DNA of 64,000 nucleotides from Escherichia coli (GCF_024223415.1 NZ_CP100503.1); one strand, 5' to 3'. Positions 49,535-56,127 are shown, counted from the first letter of the stretch. Translations and numbers: made by a program. Notes: a model not told the origin generated them from the letters alone.

Positions 49535-51262
49535 TTACTCAGAGTCACCGGCATCAATCGTGTCGCCGCTTATGAAGTTAAGCCCGCCTTTTTTGGCCAT
49601 TGTCAGCGTTACACGAGTGAAGTAATCAGCGCCGTTGCGTGGGTGCATATCGTTGATAGCCGAACCCCACAGCGTGGTACGGTTGACCAGCGCCGGAGTG
49701 GTCGGATGCTGGAACGGGATGGCCGGGACAGCATCACCAGTCACGAAGCCTGCTTTACCCGGATTTTCATCACGGACGTAGCACAGCACATCCATCGAGC
49801 TGAACTGAATGTTCTCTGTCGTTAAGTTCTTACAAATACCAGCAGGTACTTCGTACACTTTCACGTTACCGAACAGGGTACCGATGTAGTGAACATACGG
49901 AGTCTGGATATAGTCTTCGGCTGGCTGGAAGAAATCCTTCGGCAACTGTTTGAAGAAAGATGCTGCATCAGCACCAGCAAACATCCCCATCGCACCAGAA
50001 GATTTAACGCGCTCAATAATGTCGCGATATACAGTCTGGAATTTGCCACGAATGATGGTTGCCCATACATCAAAGGACTGGTTAACCGGCAGAGCGATGT
50101 CAAAGGTGTCGTTCGCAAGAGTACGCCAGATCATGATGCGAAGACGCAGCATATCCTGTTCATGAGACAGGTATTCCTTCAGGGTGCGGAACTGTAGGGA
50201 ACCCAGGTCCAGACCAAATTCACGCTGTGCTTCATACGCCGCCTGTACCGTGTGCTCAGCCGCGATAACGAACTGGCTTGGGAACAGGGTGTATTTCTTC
50301 ATTTCGTGGTTGATCAGCGGGATCAGCTCAGGAGCGGCTTCAATATTGATTTCCGTCTCAATTGCGATCTCAGTGCCTTTATCCGGCGCTTTGGAGAACG
50401 ACAGGGCAATCTGACCAATGTTGTAGTTCAGAGAGCAGGTAACAGTGATTTGCTCACCAGCAGCATTAGTAAACGAGTGAAGTAGGCTGCCGGAACCGTT
50501 ATCAACAACAGACTTAATACGGTTAACGTAGATATTAGTGCGACCTTTTCGGATTGGTACATTCTGGCCTTCGAAGTCTTCCATCTTGAAGGTTGCGGTT
50601 TTGCTGGTGCCATCGGAGCTTGCCACCAGCACATAGCGGCGGCGTAACTGGCTGTACACACCGACGGATTGCATGTCCAGAACATCACCAGCAGCATAAG
50701 AACCAAAAGAGGAACCTGCCACGTTAAAGACTTCATAGATGTCGGACTGGTCACGCGTAACCGGAATGAAGGTACACGCATCAGCGGTAGCTGCCCCCAA
50801 CTGAACAGGCAGGATCATCGCGAGGAATAAAGGCAGACGCATAACACCGTCAGAAACGCTCATCATCTCTGCTGCGACGGATTCCAGCATCGCTTTATTA
50901 GTGGCATCCATGCTATTGCGGGTAGACTCAATCAGGCAGTTTTCCAGCGTCTGGTGGCAGGAGGCCAGAATTTCCGGACGCGGCATAGATTTATGTGCTG
51001 CGGCGTAGTCAGCCAGTGCACTTGCCCACGCTGTAGCGATTTGAGCGGTGGCATTATCAGAGATACCCGCAAAAACCGGGTCTTTACGTGCAGCTTCAAG
51101 GATAGATGCGGCACGCGCGGCATCATCTTTAATGAATTGGTTATCAGTACCGAACTGCGCAGTGCTTGCCCAGCCAAGCACAGCTTTAGAGCGTTTTGCG
51201 ATATCTGCAATACGATTCTGGTATTCGCGTAAGTTACTCAATTTACTCTTCCTTAAACACAA
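49535..51262 (-). CDS. Putative major head protein (575 aa; P1 gene 23 position next to parS)
   Basis: Size and position adjacent to parS as in P1. Confidence 0.4.
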   Translation of the reverse strand: MCLRKSKLSNLREYQNRIADIAKRSKAVLGWASTAQFGTDNQFIKDDAARAASILEAARKDPVFAGISDNATAQIATAWASALADYAAAHKSMPRPEILASCHQTLENCLIESTRNSMDATNKAMLESVAAEMMSVSDGVMRLPLFLAMILPVQLGAATADACTFIPVTRDQSDIYEVFNVAGSSFGSYAAGDVLDMQSVGVYSQLRRRYVLVASSDGTSKTATFKMEDFEGQNVPIRKGRTNIYVNRIKSVVDNGSGSLLHSFTNAAGEQITVTCSLNYNIGQIALSFSKAPDKGTEIAIETEINIEAAPELIPLINHEMKKYTLFPSQFVIAAEHTVQAAYEAQREFGLDLGSLQFRTLKEYLSHEQDMLRLRIMIWRTLANDTFDIALPVNQSFDVWATIIRGKFQTVYRDIIERVKSSGAMGMFAGADAASFFKQLPKDFFQPAEDYIQTPYVHYIGTLFGNVKVYEVPAGICKNLTTENIQFSSMDVLCYVRDENPGKAGFVTGDAVPAIPFQHPTTPALVNRTTLWGSAINDMHPRNGADYFTRVTLTMAKKGGLNFISGDTIDAGDSE

Positions 51263-51379
51263 GGCACTTGTGTGAATCCCTTTTCGGAAGAGATTTTATT
51301 GAAAGTCACTTGTTGACTTTCTCGTGACAAGCAATTTTTTTATTTTTTTCGGGAGTAGGGGAGGAAGGTAAAATCCAAG

Positions 51380-51465
51380 GTGAAATCGTGGCGATTTCAC
51401 CTTGAAATTTTAGATGGATTTACTTTAAAAACAGTAGGTTAATAGTGAAATTTGAATGGCGAAAG
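51380..51465. other. parS centromere (ParB box A heptamers ATTTCAC/ATTTCAA and box B hexamers TCGCCA)
   Basis: GTGAAATCGTGGCGATTTCACCTTGAAATTT and TAGTGAAATTTGAATGGCGAAAG, with an AT-rich IHF-like region between; directly downstream of parB. Confidence 0.75.
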
Positions 51466-51466
51466 T

Positions 51467-52468
51467 TTAAGGCTTCGGCTTTTTATCGAGGCTCTTTCTA
51501 AGGATATGCCCAATCATCCTGTCGAGTTCTTCCTGTAGCTCTTTTGAAAGTCGATTAAACTCATAAGAAAATGCACGGCCTTTCACGCGCTTCCTTGCAA
51601 AGCGATCCTTGTCCTCAAATTTCCATAATTCAGTAACTACGGACTTATCTTTAGAACCTTTATCCGTGAGTAGTGAGGCTTCCTTTGTTATCAAGCGCAG
51701 GATTTTATTTTTAACTTCATCTTCGGCCATTTCTTCAATGGATAAGATGTCGTTTATTTCCGGGGATATGTTTTGAATAAGCTGATCAAACTCTAAATTC
51801 TTGTTCCCCATTTCGTCGCCAACAGCACAAAGCGTTTTGTAGTCCGAAAAGGTTAATTCCGACTGCACAGGGAAAAGGGCGACTAATTCTTCCGGAGCAC
51901 TCGCTGCCTGGAGAGCACGCGTGACCTTCGCCTGAGACAGCCCTTCTTTGGCTGCAATATCCTTCTGACTCATCCCATCATTTTTCATTCGCATCAAACG
52001 CAGACCTATTTCTCGAATGCTGTGCTGCAATGCTGTCTGAACGTCTTTCGCTAAATTTTGCGCTTCCTGAACGCTGATCTCCTGGTCCGTGACTAAAACC
52101 CGCAACCCTACGTTCTCTAAGATGGCAGAAGCTCGACGCCGGGAACCATCCAAAATTTCAATTTTCCCTGTAGCCTGTCTAACACCTATTGCAGGGTAAA
52201 ATTGCTGATGCTTAATAGTGCTTCGGATACTTTTTAATGATTTTGGCGTAAGAGATGCCTGGTCACGCCCGTTGTTATGCTGATCAACAAAGGTATCGCT
52301 TTCTACCTGGTTCGGAGGTATTACCTCTTCAATAAATGTGGCCTGGCGACCAGTTGATAACTTGAATACCTGCTCGACTCGATCGCCAGAGGCTGAAGAA
52401 CTATCAAATCCGCTTAATATTGAAGGATTAAGGGTTCGCCCAATTGTTGGTCTGTTTTTCTTTGACAT
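51467..52468 (-). CDS. parB: Partition protein ParB (333 aa)
   Basis: Length and parA-parB-parS order as in P1; HTH region. Confidence 0.85.
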   Translation of the reverse strand: MSKKNRPTIGRTLNPSILSGFDSSSASGDRVEQVFKLSTGRQATFIEEVIPPNQVESDTFVDQHNNGRDQASLTPKSLKSIRSTIKHQQFYPAIGVRQATGKIEILDGSRRRASAILENVGLRVLVTDQEISVQEAQNLAKDVQTALQHSIREIGLRLMRMKNDGMSQKDIAAKEGLSQAKVTRALQAASAPEELVALFPVQSELTFSDYKTLCAVGDEMGNKNLEFDQLIQNISPEINDILSIEEMAEDEVKNKILRLITKEASLLTDKGSKDKSVVTELWKFEDKDRFARKRVKGRAFSYEFNRLSKELQEELDRMIGHILRKSLDKKPKP

Positions 52469-52484
52469 GGGGGTTTCTTACTCC

Positions 52485-53681
52485 TCAGTTAGATCTGATA
52501 AATTCAATACGGTCAAAAACTGCTTTAGCAAAATCTTCCGCAGCAATTCGCGCGTTCTTCAATGCATCAGCACTACCAACATACGTTGCCGGGTTAGCTG
52601 AAATAACAGTGTCAAAAGACTCGCCGCAGCGTTCAAAACCGTCAAGGCGAGGGAGGACGACATCAAGCATATCCCCACCGAACACTTCTTTAGCCAGGCT
52701 ATGGCAATACTTATGGTCTGCCTTGTTACTCAACTTGGACATAAAACCAATGTTAGTCGCAAGCTGGCACTCGCAGCCTTCATCCGAAATGAGTTTCACC
52801 AACTCAGGAAGGCGAGCAACATATTTAAGCGATGAGTGGAAATCAACCGTTGCAGGCGGCAGAGGTGTAAACAGTATATTGGCCGAGGCCAAAGCATTTT
52901 TCAGGAAGGCGTCAAGGTGAGGACCACTATCAACGAGGATAAAGTCATAATCGCTCTTCAGCTTATCAATCACATTTTCTTTCAGGACTGCATGGATGTT
53001 CTGACCCGGTAGATGCTCATTGCACAGCTCTCTCCAATCGGATGCAATAAAGGCATCGTCAATCGACGCAGGCATAACGTCAACCCCAGGTACAACAGAA
53101 GGAACAATAAACTCCTCTAACAGCTCTTCACGGCTTACATTCTGCAACATAGCCTGTGCAGATGTTGCGTTTACGATACCAATAGAGTGTTTATGGCTTA
53201 AAAACATCGTTGCTGAAGATTGCGGATCAAGGTCAATAACCAGAATCCTTAAATCTTCCATCAGAAGATGAGGGTGAGCACGCATTGCATGCGCCAGAGA
53301 AACCGTCGATACAGTTTTTGACACACCGCCTTTAAGATTGGAGATGAAAATCACATACGCTTCGCTGTAGCGATCCCGGTATTTTGGCACTCCGCGATGT
53401 TCATATATGTCAATGATGTTCTGAATTGACATCGCATATTTCATTGAAGAGCCAGCAGGGCGTTTATCGAAAACATAACCCTTTTCTTCCATTTCACTTA
53501 CGGCATAGTCAACGTTCGCTCGAGTCAGTAGAGGCAATTTTGCCAGTGCCGCTTTCGCATAGACTTGGTAAAACTCGTTCGCGTGTAGCTCATCCTTTTG
53601 CAACTGTACTTGTTCAGTCAGAACATTGAGCATTCTGTTTGCTCTTTGAGCAACCTTGTGAAGCTGGCTGGAATCACTCAT
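52485..53681 (-). CDS. parA: Partition ATPase ParA (398 aa, type Ia with N-terminal DNA-binding extension)
   Basis: Deviant Walker A KGGVSKT; length matches P1 ParA. Confidence 0.85.
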   Translation of the reverse strand: MSDSSQLHKVAQRANRMLNVLTEQVQLQKDELHANEFYQVYAKAALAKLPLLTRANVDYAVSEMEEKGYVFDKRPAGSSMKYAMSIQNIIDIYEHRGVPKYRDRYSEAYVIFISNLKGGVSKTVSTVSLAHAMRAHPHLLMEDLRILVIDLDPQSSATMFLSHKHSIGIVNATSAQAMLQNVSREELLEEFIVPSVVPGVDVMPASIDDAFIASDWRELCNEHLPGQNIHAVLKENVIDKLKSDYDFILVDSGPHLDAFLKNALASANILFTPLPPATVDFHSSLKYVARLPELVKLISDEGCECQLATNIGFMSKLSNKADHKYCHSLAKEVFGGDMLDVVLPRLDGFERCGESFDTVISANPATYVGSADALKNARIAAEDFAKAVFDRIEFIRSN

Positions 53682-53727
53682 CGAAAGTCATCCTTTATGC
53701 TGTATTTTTGAATTTACTTAAAAATGC

Positions 53728-53750
53728 TGCATAAAATAATAATGTATGCA
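53728..53750. promoter_or_regulatory. par operon operator palindrome TGCATAAAATAATAATGTATGCA
   Basis: Inverted repeat about 45 bp upstream of parA start. Confidence 0.5.
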
Positions 53751-53821
53751 CAGATGCTTGTACATAGCATTCTCTGCATGTTTGGTTCATTTTGCACGAT
53801 TGAGAGTTACAAGGAGGACAC

Positions 53822-53842
53822 AAAAAAGCCCCGTTCAGGGGC
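53822..53842 (-). terminator. Rho-independent terminator candidate (GCCCC-loop-GGGGC, T-run on minus strand)
   Basis: Directly downstream of 53850..54659 gene. Confidence 0.55.
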
Positions 53843-53849
53843 ATCAGTG

Positions 53850-54659
53850 TTATTTGCTAAGAGCAGCGAATAATCGTTCGAAATCGATAGTATCTATAGC
53901 ACGCGTAAGCGCCGGAAGTTCAGTCTCAAAGTACCCGTGTCGATCGTAAAAGAAGGGACCGAAGAGCGAGGCATGTTGGATTCTACTTCGCCCCAGCCCG
54001 GACACACAGTTAAGCCCATTACCGGCTAAAAGGCTAAAAAACTTCTCTGGATTATCGTGGTAAAGCTGGGAATCAATGGTGGCGGTTAACTCTTCCATAG
54101 GGAAGCACACCCGCCCTGTCTCCCAGGGATATTTAGTCCGAAGCATAAACACTGCTTTCAGCAATTCACATTGAGCGCGGATCGCGTCCGGTTCATAGCC
54201 AGATATGGAGACATAAGCCACGTCCCTCATTCCTGCGTCATCTTTGAAAGTCACGATAGAAGTAACATCCAACTCTTTTTCGAAAGAGCGAGCAGCATCT
54301 ACTGGACGCTGAAGTAAATCATTCGACTTAATGCGCTCGAGAATCCCTCCCCACATATCATTTAGATATTCGATATGAGCCAAAACCTTATCAAGACACT
54401 CTCGTGTAAACCATTCAGTATGCCCGCCACCGGCGCTTTTCTCCCACGGCGCATTCCAGGGGAAAAAGGTTGCGTGTAAAGCCCGCTCAAGATTAACTAT
54501 TGCCAAACGCGTACCACGATAGACCCGTGAAAGCGCAAAATCGGGACTCACTTGTAGCCCTTTAAACCGTGCCAATGGACCACATGAAATGCCGATTTTA
54601 AAAGTATCTCCATTCTCCGGCACCAGAACGTAGAGGTAGTGTTGTTTCTCTTCTTGCAT
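53850..54659 (-). CDS. Hypothetical protein (269 aa) with GIY-YIG-like N-terminal motif
   Basis: N-terminus HYLYVLVPENGDTFKIGIS...R resembles GIY-(10 aa)-YIG; own terminator; sits between parA promoter and repA iterons. Confidence 0.4.
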   Translation of the reverse strand: MQEEKQHYLYVLVPENGDTFKIGISCGPLARFKGLQVSPDFALSRVYRGTRLAIVNLERALHATFFPWNAPWEKSAGGGHTEWFTRECLDKVLAHIEYLNDMWGGILERIKSNDLLQRPVDAARSFEKELDVTSIVTFKDDAGMRDVAYVSISGYEPDAIRAQCELLKAVFMLRTKYPWETGRVCFPMEELTATIDSQLYHDNPEKFFSLLAGNGLNCVSGLGRSRIQHASLFGPFFYDRHGYFETELPALTRAIDTIDFERLFAALSK

Positions 54660-54693
54660 ATCAATACCACTGCTTGATGAGAACCGCGCAAAT

Positions 54694-54950
54694 GTTGACT
54701 ATGCGCGAAAGTTAATGTGAATAGTTGACTATGCGCGATGTGACTACAGTAAAAAGTTGACTGTAGTCGATTTAACTCCACCAAAGATCGACTATGTAAG
54801 ATATTGTCGGGAGAAACGTTGACTATACGCGATGAAATGACCCTAAAAGCCATCTCAATAGCGACTTGCAGAATATTGACGCCAGCAAAAATCCACCAGC
54901 GTCAACGAATGTCGCCTATAGTCAACTTCTCGCTATCGCATATAGTCAAT
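54694..54950. repeat. Iteron cluster downstream of repA (incA-like): GTTGACTATGCGCGA-type repeats in both orientations
   Basis: At least 5 direct copies (54694, 54724, 54756, 54787, 54818) and 2 inverted (54912, 54936). Confidence 0.7.
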
Positions 54951-54951
54951 A

Positions 54952-55893
54952 TTATGGATTACGCTTATGGATCTGGAAGCCGATTTTCCTGCCGTTTTTT
55001 ATCTCTGAAAATTTAAGATATTCAATAGCTTCCAAATCTTTCATGGCTTTTCTGATAACGCTATTTTGCACGCTAACGGATGATTTGAGATTAAGCCTTG
55101 CTCTAAGGCGCTCAATGCTGACAGGTGCCGGGTTGGCGGGTAGAGCCTCAAAGAATGTATACAGTACCTTGGCCGTCTCTTTGCGCCCGAGCTTATCCAG
55201 CATCTTCAGCTTCAGGATTCGCTTATAGTCAACATAGTAAAGTTCAGATAGCTGTTTCTGCGGCTGGATCTCGATAACATCAAGCTCGGTATTCAGGCTG
55301 CTATATGCCAACAAGTTGACGTTAATGTTATTGAGATGACCTTTTGCCGCCGGGAAGCGGAATTTGACAACTGTCTGCTGAATGCGTGTCAGAGAGTCAT
55401 CAATACTTTTACGGAACGCCTTTGAAAGGCGCTTACGTGGATAGCCGCATCGATCGGCAAACTCGGAGAATGGCAGGGTGATTATGCCGTCATCATCAGG
55501 TGCGTAGTCAAACAACGCGGAGGTTATGCCCACCCACACCTTAAAATCAGTATCCATATCCAGGCGTGGACCATGAATTTCAATTCCCTCATAGCCTTCC
55601 TGCTCAACAATTTTGAGGCTTGATAGTTCTTCGGTTGCGTTCGTTGTGTTTGTAGTAACTGACGATCCGCGACGTAGTGCCACATTGGTAGATTTTAAGG
55701 TTGGCACAAACACACCTAAGCGCAACAAAGCGATGGGTTGTATAGTGCTATTGTTATTGGGTTTCAGGCTGTGGATTTCTCCTGTATTTCCTGCAACTTC
55801 TTCAACGCTAAGGAAGCCTTTATTTTCTTCCGGCATCGTGGTTTCTCCATATGTGGCGCGGCCTGGCGTCATCTGGATTGCAGTTATCAACAA
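54952..55893 (-). CDS. repA: Iteron-binding plasmid replication initiator RepA (313 aa; likely shorter true start)
   Basis: Flanked by iteron arrays on both sides; motifs QPIALLRLGVFVP and GPRLDMDTDFKVW resemble P1 RepA as I recall. Confidence 0.75.
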   Translation of the reverse strand: MLITAIQMTPGRATYGETTMPEENKGFLSVEEVAGNTGEIHSLKPNNNSTIQPIALLRLGVFVPTLKSTNVALRRGSSVTTNTTNATEELSSLKIVEQEGYEGIEIHGPRLDMDTDFKVWVGITSALFDYAPDDDGIITLPFSEFADRCGYPRKRLSKAFRKSIDDSLTRIQQTVVKFRFPAAKGHLNNINVNLLAYSSLNTELDVIEIQPQKQLSELYYVDYKRILKLKMLDKLGRKETAKVLYTFFEALPANPAPVSIERLRARLNLKSSVSVQNSVIRKAMKDLEAIEYLKFSEIKNGRKIGFQIHKRNP

Positions 55894-55916
55894 CTGTGAA
55901 TAGTCAGGCTCTAAAA

Positions 55917-56127
55917 TCGCGTACAGTCAATGTTTCTGTCGCGTATAGTCAACAATAAATCGCGTGCAGTCAACAATAAATCGTGCACAGTCAACATAAA
56001 ATCGCGTATAGTCAATGTTAATCCCATTTCAGGCCAGAAATGGCGCGGCTTACAGCGATCCGGGATCTTCTTTGGATCTTCCTGGGTTCTCTTTAGGATC
56101 TGTTTATTGGATCTATGCTGTGGATAA
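55917..56127. other. Plasmid origin (oriR-like): five 14-bp iterons at 21-22 bp spacing, five GATC sites and a consensus DnaA box
   Basis: Iterons TCGCGTAYAGTCAA at 55917, 55939, 55960, 55981, 56002; GATC at 56057, 56064, 56075, 56097, 56110; TGTGGATAA at 56119. Confidence 0.75.

Follow-up and report, generated by a model that had tools for sequence, protein, structure and literature searches.

The 64,000-nucleotide stretch of Escherichia coli DNA analysed here (GCF_024223415.1 NZ_CP100503.1; the whole stretch is called the window) represents a P1-like phage-plasmid of the RCS47/SJ46/pO111_3 type, with 98.4–98.9% identity to those records over positions 53600–55000. Between its repA and parA genes, at positions 53850–54659 of the minus strand (Table 1), is a 269 amino acid (aa) open reading frame (ORF) whose N-terminal sequence is MQEEKQHYLYVLVPENGDTFKIGISCGPLAR. 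A preliminary description had placed this ORF, with a terminator, between the par promoter and the repA iterons and had likened its N-terminus to the GIY-YIG nuclease signature. The coordinates, the hairpin and the flanking features confirm the placement, and a T5orf172 domain match together with the predicted fold bears out the likeness. The ORF consists of a predicted T5orf172/GIY-YIG nuclease domain followed by a C-terminal domain confined to a few P1-like elements, and it is situated at the edge of the replicon cassette in which the window differs from P1. We tentatively read it as a selfish homing-type or element-conflict endonuclease gene.

The ORF is evidently a real gene and not a chance reading frame, because the whole protein matches PHROG 2876 (phrog_2876, E = 4e-192), a family of unknown function, because copies of at least 90% identity are present in 400 PLSDB plasmids, and because other P1-like elements have full-length homologues of 26–43% identity in the corresponding position. 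The gene is widespread and automatically annotated, and publications mention it as a gene of unknown nature in the replication region of p0111. The RefSeq label is 'GIY-YIG nuclease family protein'. Public annotations of sequences matching window positions 53600–56100 conflict, and the phage phi456 record labels the ORF 'terminase small subunit'. A foreign base composition of the ORF was rejected, its GC content of 47.5% being unremarkable beside 47.7% for the window.

Residues 8–85 of the protein match the Pfam family T5orf172 (PF10544, GIY-YIG clan) with 26.8 bits against a gathering cutoff of 20 (E = 7.5e-6). The three other full-length variants described below score 25.1–28 bits and are also above the gathering threshold. 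The N-terminus in addition matches phrog_681, 'endonuclease' (1e-9). Alignment by hhalign to other T5orf172 proteins gives a probability of 99.8%, and this profile-profile homology stops at residue 105. The fold of the N-terminal domain is of the GIY-YIG alpha/beta type. In an alignment of 76 homologues Y10, K21, G23, R31, E58, E82 and W83 are invariant, H62 and F84 are kept in at least 90%, and G79 is also nearly invariant. By their positions in the motif series YxY...KIG...R...TEWF, Y10 is predicted to be the GIY tyrosine, R31 the first-helix arginine and E82 the metal-binding glutamate. The catalytic-motif residues are unchanged in all 44 p0111-type copies of the ORF and the T5orf172 motifs are kept in all four variants. 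The first-helix His/Tyr is absent from the protein, as it is from Odn, the origin-directed nuclease of phage ICP1. Odn is itself a T5orf172 nuclease and needs the equivalent glutamate for cleavage (PMC8263062; PMC10448857). In sequence, fold and motifs the ORF product belongs with the T5orf172/GIY-YIG nuclease family, and endonuclease activity is predicted for it.

No Pfam family matches residues ~121–269, and this C-terminal domain is not common to other T5orf172 proteins of similar length. Its predicted fold resembles the WH1 domain of Rep proteins, at the fold level only and with modest scores, and the model of the full-length protein returns the same families mixed with generic winged-helix proteins. 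The domain is thus modelled as winged-helix-like and Rep-WH1-like, and any DNA binding by it is putative. An Odn-like origin of the C-terminal domain, from either the neighbouring RepA or the RepA of P1, was rejected. BLASTP of the domain against the window RepA and P1 RepA gave nothing (best E = 6), and hhalign of the C-terminal domain profile against a RepA profile gave a probability of 0.3%.

The gene is part of a larger difference between the window and P1. By blastn, window positions 50001–53783 are 99.1% identical to P1 and positions 56033–59000 are 95.3% identical. Inside the cassette that lies between them there is essentially no P1 homology by blastn, with a single 59 base pair (bp) match of 76% within repA, and the cassette RepA shares 41% identity with P1 RepA. 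The ORF is therefore not an extra gene added to the P1 layout, as had been supposed: repA and the iterons are replaced as well, the replicon is that known as p0111, and simple insertion of the ORF into P1 is rejected. The preliminary description, in which incA of P1 abuts the parA promoter region, is about right: ~190 bp with no annotated gene separate the −35 element of the par promoter (Ppar) from the first incA iteron. Nothing is annotated in the 214 bp from the last incA iteron to Ppar of P1 (positions 6145–6357 of the P1 rep/par region, locus L002), and these are unlike both the window cassette and the cassette of locus L004. The P1 rep/par region (12.2 kb) gave no significant match to any of the four variants by tblastn, and P1 records share only the parA end with the window query (megablast, tblastn). 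A remnant of the ORF in the 214-bp spacer was rejected, none being found by tblastn or by alignment. P1 is without a homologue, and the ORF is not a P1 backbone gene.

On the par side the boundary of the cassette is sharp. P1 homology stops at 53783, which is 66 bp from the ORF stop codon, and this breakpoint is situated ~19 bp upstream of the par promoter −35. The same limits are found in a second pair of elements. Loci L003 and L004 have backbones that are 94–98.6% identical on both sides and carry different cassettes, and the swapped segment extends from the first origin iteron to 63–84 bp past the ORF stop. With the L003/L004 limits about the same as the window/P1 limits, the cassette has undergone at least two exchanges, and the nuclease gene lies at the sharp edge each time. 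Within oriR the iterons are swapped, and the DnaA-box/GATC part remains that of the P1-type backbone. Well outside the cassette, P1 identity falls locally to 86–95% at window positions 57225–57625 and 58025–58425, in the region of upfB and a PAAR-motif gene; these look like small mosaic patches.

Only four full-length variants of the protein, the window protein included, were found among 5.8 billion proteins by a single-sequence search followed by a profile search, and a filter-free search of 1.84 billion cluster representatives returned the same four. No further variant was found in the profile search of the 5.8 billion proteins, in a scan of 100,044 species genomes or in IMG/VR. The scan, with one genome per species, gave a single Escherichia locus. 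All four variants lie between repA and parA of P1-like elements and each is paired with a different RepA/iteron type. Variant P0004, in locus L003, is 43% identical to the window ORF; it keeps the window iteron, and its RepA is 83% and its ParA 89% identical to those of the window. The C-terminal domains of the window and L003 proteins are 31% identical, while the RepA proteins are 83% identical. Variant P0010, in loci L004 and L005 of Salmonella enterica, is 26% identical to the window ORF and is found beside P1-type iterons and an IncY-like RepA that is 83% identical to that of P1. Variant P0011, in locus L006, is also 26% identical and is accompanied by a third RepA and iteron type. The IncY-type replicon thus shows a presence/absence polymorphism, with the gene in L004 and L005 and without it in P1.

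By ORF identity L006 goes with L004 (39%), but by RepA identity its nearest type is p0111 (48%), ahead of IncY (41–42%). This slight incongruence is a hint of occasional reassortment between the nuclease gene and repA. Four more distant homologues share the N-terminal domain only, and their contexts, mobile or defence-like, are unrelated. A general link of the T5orf172 subfamily to Rep genes was rejected, as these four distant homologues lie in unrelated contexts.

The window cassette is the p0111 replicon of pO111_3, RCS47, SJ46 and JL22, with 98.4–99.6% identity over the cassette. This replicon was previously described as an alternative to IncY in P1-like phage-plasmids, 24 p0111 and 31 IncY replicons being counted among 55. 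The cassette is covered to at least 80% by 391 records of PLSDB. Of 5,426 complete E. coli genomes, 401 reach this coverage and 418 have at least some of it. Among the matches listed, partial ones are only rearranged or cut by the ends of records. The ORF is a fixed part of the p0111 replicon and is completely linked to the p0111 repA/iteron set.

Polymorphism within the p0111 type was assessed in 40 p0111-type loci from IMG/VR plus the window (n = 40). The ratio of nonsynonymous to synonymous nucleotide diversity (piN/piS) is 0.29 in the ORF, while repA has 0.02, parA 0.00 and parB 0.03. Amino acid polymorphism is found at 30 of 269 codons of the ORF, compared to 3 of 294 in repA, 1 of 398 in parA and 5 of 333 in parB. 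The ORF evolves with roughly 10-fold less constraint than its neighbours. Premature stops are present in 7 of 44 ungapped ORF copies, at three different codons; one at codon 112 (as in IMG/VR locus L026) is an allele common to five loci, and another, in L051, is at codon 228. In an eighth disrupted locus, L058 (6295–8057), an IS200/IS605-family insertion element lies inside the ORF and ORF nucleotides ~295 to 523 are lost. This insertion encodes a 389 aa TnpB-like ORF and a 141 aa TnpA-like ORF. In total the ORF is disrupted in 8 of 45 loci (~18%), by at least four independent events, and no disruption of repA, parA or parB is found in the same loci. Two more nonsense alleles and two chimeric products of the ORF are found elsewhere. 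Because piN/piS is raised and ~18% of copies are disrupted, the ORF is considered dispensable for plasmid maintenance and weakly constrained. Should it prove to be only a decaying passenger, this would still be useful to know: being dispensable, it should not be counted as part of the minimal p0111 replicon.

Table 1. Features of the ORF and of the replicon cassette that contains it, in window coordinates.
Feature	Coordinates	Strand	Description
Replicon cassette	53784..56032	.	2,249 bp, replaces 1,491 bp of P1; 'p0111' replicon; limits by blastn against P1
269 aa ORF	53850..54659	-	ATG start, TAA stop; T5orf172/GIY-YIG nuclease-family protein with lineage-specific C-terminal domain
N-terminal nuclease domain	54300..54659	-	codons 1 to ~120; YLYvL (Y8, Y10), FKIG (K21, G23), R31, E58..H62, PWN (N69), GGhTEWF (E82)
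C-terminal domain	53853..54299	-	codons ~121–269; acidic, predicted winged-helix-like fold, confined to the four P1-like variants
Intrinsic-terminator-like hairpin	53828..53842	-	GCCCCTGAACGGGGC, then T-run TTTTTTGTGT; GC-rich, 7 nucleotides past the ORF stop
Origin iterons	55912..56019	-	five, 21-bp spacing; with promoter-like site for repA at 56021–55993
repA	54952..55836	-	Rep3-type initiator, 294 aa from the annotated ATG; Pfam Rep3_N and Rep3_C
Two downstream iterons	54910..54950	-	orientation as origin iterons; directly downstream of the repA stop codon
Four downstream iterons	54690..54832	-	core TTGACTATGCGCGA on the plus strand, inverted relative to origin iterons; degenerate fifth near 54789
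par operon promoter	53736..53764	-	common to P1; −35 at ~53759–53764; from P1 annotation, homology boundary and promoter scan

Read along the minus strand, the cassette consists of origin iterons, repA, downstream iterons, the ORF and the terminator. The downstream iteron array, from 54690 to 54950, flanks the ORF, and its final inverted iteron ends ~30 bp upstream of the ORF start. The inverted layout of the downstream iterons is also present in L003, and when the region upstream of the ORF is aligned with L003 only iterons and one short conserved block are found. The iteron core is TTGACTATACGCGA in the cassette and ATGTGTGCTGGAGGG in the IncY type (P1). A further iteron copy, TTGACTATAAGCGA on the coding strand, is present inside the repA coding sequence at window positions 55217–55233, and this copy is conserved in the diverged L003 replicon (~7613). 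Public records name the window RepA differently: RefSeq phage records have 'replication helicase', PGAP a RepB family initiator, and some records RepFIB. MOB-suite types the replicon as IncHI1B.

Between repA and parA the hairpin at 53842–53828 is the sole strong terminator candidate on the minus strand. Control of the ORF by a promoter of its own or by the P1 C1 repressor gained no support, as there is neither a sigma-70-like site upstream nor a C1 operator nearby; a consensus search allowing up to 3 mismatches found no operator within the rep/par region. Over the window the same consensus, with up to 3 mismatches, has 15 matches (e.g. 58364–58380) where 0.2 are expected by chance, and the match nearest to the rep/par region is the Odmt operator.

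The ORF may be best explained as a selfish, free-standing homing-type or element-conflict endonuclease of the T5orf172 group (GIY-YIG superfamily), for which cleavage, target and conversion are all putative. We regard this as a plausible though tentative reading. It is put forward because the intact nuclease core, the fast-evolving second domain, the position at a sharp boundary, the presence/absence pattern, the divergence and the recurrent decay match what has been set out for phage T5orf172 genes. In a cell with two P1-like elements, the nuclease would cut the allele of the rival at the replicon/par junction or close to it. Repair would then draw on the nuclease-carrying element by way of the conserved flanks, Ppar and parA on one side and the DnaA-box part of oriR with upfA on the other, and would co-convert the replicon cassette as a whole. 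Once fixed, the nuclease gene would drift and decay. Candidates for target recognition are the nuclease domain, the C-terminal domain, or recruitment through RepA. A more specific form of the proposal, in which the Rep-WH1-like domain would direct the GIY-YIG domain, directly or docked on RepA, to a rival replication region, and repair would copy the entire origin-repA-iteron-nuclease cassette, is considered unlikely. The 'homing-type nuclease' of the preliminary description thus fits the comparative evidence of breakpoint position, presence/absence, divergence and decay, though only indirectly.

Several observations weigh against the homing-type reading. The C-terminal domain has an isoelectric point (pI) of 5.0–5.4 in all variants compared to 9.3–9.5 for RepA, and its putative recognition helix, PEKFFSLL, is hydrophobic and acidic and without DNA-binding character; such an acidic domain is atypical as the DNA-binding or targeting module of a homing endonuclease. 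The promoter scan recognised no sigma-70-like promoter upstream of the ORF on the ORF strand. Among the matches listed (391 PLSDB records and 401 E. coli genomes) there is no clean case of a p0111 repA without the ORF, and, no empty-site p0111 allele having been found, the linkage could simply reflect common descent. At the oriR/upfA side the edge of the cassette is a gradient, with P1 identity going from 82% through 96% and 98% to 100% over ~800 bp (window 56033–56830). Equally, the breakpoints could be set without a nuclease, by the extent of homology between replicon types.

A somewhat unlikely alternative is that the ORF is a single-gene exclusion or defence nuclease. The GIY-YIG effector would degrade the DNA of an invading phage, of a rival plasmid or of the host (abortive infection), with the C-terminal domain as a sensor or specificity module, and the seat in the maintenance region would give expression in the lysogen. 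Such a role is consistent with the intact and invariant nuclease core, with the rapid divergence of the C-terminal domain, and with the situation of the ORF in the lysogen-expressed rep/par region away from any C1 operator. Moreover, distant homologues of the N-terminal domain adjoin Mrr_cat/WYL and GmrSD_N genes and lie on mobile elements, and the example of Odn shows that one element can use a T5orf172 nuclease as a weapon against another (PMC8263062). However, PADLOC (PADLOC-DB v2) returned 0 families at E ≤ 1, so that the defence gene named as the other possibility in the preliminary description gained no support, and a known defence system was rejected with neither a PADLOC nor an NCBIfam match. 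There is also no partner gene. Unlike genes of defence islands, the ORF is strictly confined to one slot of one replicon family, and its piN/piS and the proportion of disrupted copies point to weak selection and not to active maintenance.

Two other explanations both seem quite improbable. In one, the ORF product assists the replicon as an accessory factor. Rep initiators dimerise through their WH1 domain, and the Rep-WH1-like C-terminal domain would pair with RepA or bind iteron DNA and so modulate initiation, handcuffing or copy number, while the nuclease domain would nick iterons or be a domesticated DNA-binding module as in CapR. The WH1-like fold, the co-orientation with repA and the lack of a recognised promoter for the ORF are in keeping with this. 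However, the gene is dispensable, as complete and maintained phage-plasmids carry nonsense alleles, and the P1 IncY replicon works without it. The window and L003 share the iteron and a RepA of 83% identity, yet their C-terminal domains have diverged to 31%, which is unlike a conserved partner interface. The fold scores are modest, sequence and profile similarity to RepA is absent, and the retained catalytic residues speak against pure domestication. The other explanation is a decaying passenger that no longer has a function: an old nuclease gene would have become caught between repA and parA and would be kept there by its linkage to the essential replicon. The relaxed constraint (30 polymorphic codons against 1–5 in the neighbouring genes), the independent and recurrent knock-outs and the absence from P1 all agree with a passenger. 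But piN/piS is still well below 1, and no motif residue varies among 44 copies or between variants whose identity is as low as ~26%. Furthermore, the same slot is kept in four deeply diverged cassettes, which indicates long-term retention.

P1-like phage-plasmids are frequent carriers of extended-spectrum beta-lactamase (ESBL) and mcr genes. Their replicons are mainly of two types, IncY and p0111, and sit on almost identical backbones; the exchange of these replicons has so far been unexplained. The position of the ORF offers a concrete mechanism, namely nuclease-driven co-conversion of the replicon. With such a mechanism, the principle that nuclease genes mark exchange boundaries would extend from lytic phages to plasmid incompatibility determinants. 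In the more specific form of the proposal, considered unlikely above, the ORF would be a homing endonuclease by which an entire plasmid replicon is mobilised and the switching of incompatibility type is driven, and it would explain why incompatibility types (IncY, p0111 and others) are interchangeable on near-identical P1-like backbones. Published descriptions of the p0111 replicon end at annotation, to which the architecture, the breakpoints, the divergent homologues and the decay pattern are added here. New for the ORF are its two-domain architecture, its position at the cassette edge in two lineages, homologues beside other RepA types, its absence from P1, and its pattern of decay.

Among known systems, T5orf172 genes of phages have been proposed to be homing endonucleases that are found at the borders of genetic exchange among phages (PMC10448857). 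The ORF resembles these putative homing endonucleases of ICP1 and other phages (Barth, Dunham & Seed 2023, PMC10448857) in that a T5orf172 domain is joined to a second domain. The genes of both groups are also free-standing beside essential genes, at the boundary of an exchanged block, variably present, and frequently represented by nonsense or indel alleles. They differ in the second domain, as 87% of the phage proteins carry CapR, DUF723 or DUF4397 zinc-finger DNA-binding domains (PMC10448857) whereas the ORF has an acidic, winged-helix-like domain that belongs to no Pfam family. They differ also in setting, which is the replicon cassette of a temperate phage-plasmid for the ORF and a lytic phage genome for the others; homing is putative in both.

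The T-even free-standing GIY-YIG homing endonucleases (Seg proteins and the I-TevI family) share the GIY-YIG catalytic fold with the ORF. Seg genes are intergenic and free-standing, and in mixed infections they cause localised marker exclusion and co-convert the genes that flank them. The ORF differs in belonging to the T5orf172 subfamily, in being without the first-helix His/Tyr and without a recognisable DNA-binding domain of the I-TevI type, and in that the proposed co-converted unit is a whole plasmid replicon.

Odn (ICP1 gp88; Barth et al. 2021, PMC8263062) is likewise a T5orf172 nuclease joined to a replication-initiator-like domain, and both Odn and the ORF are associated with iteron-type replicons whose initiator domain and origin modules swap among related elements. 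The C-terminal domain of the ORF, however, shows resemblance to Rep WH1 only at the fold level. The ORF is not classed as Odn-like because sequence homology to the initiator DNA-binding domain is absent, as the hhalign comparison above indicates. By analogy, the ORF would work most like the free-standing GIY-YIG/T5orf172 homing endonucleases, with an architecture that recalls Odn.
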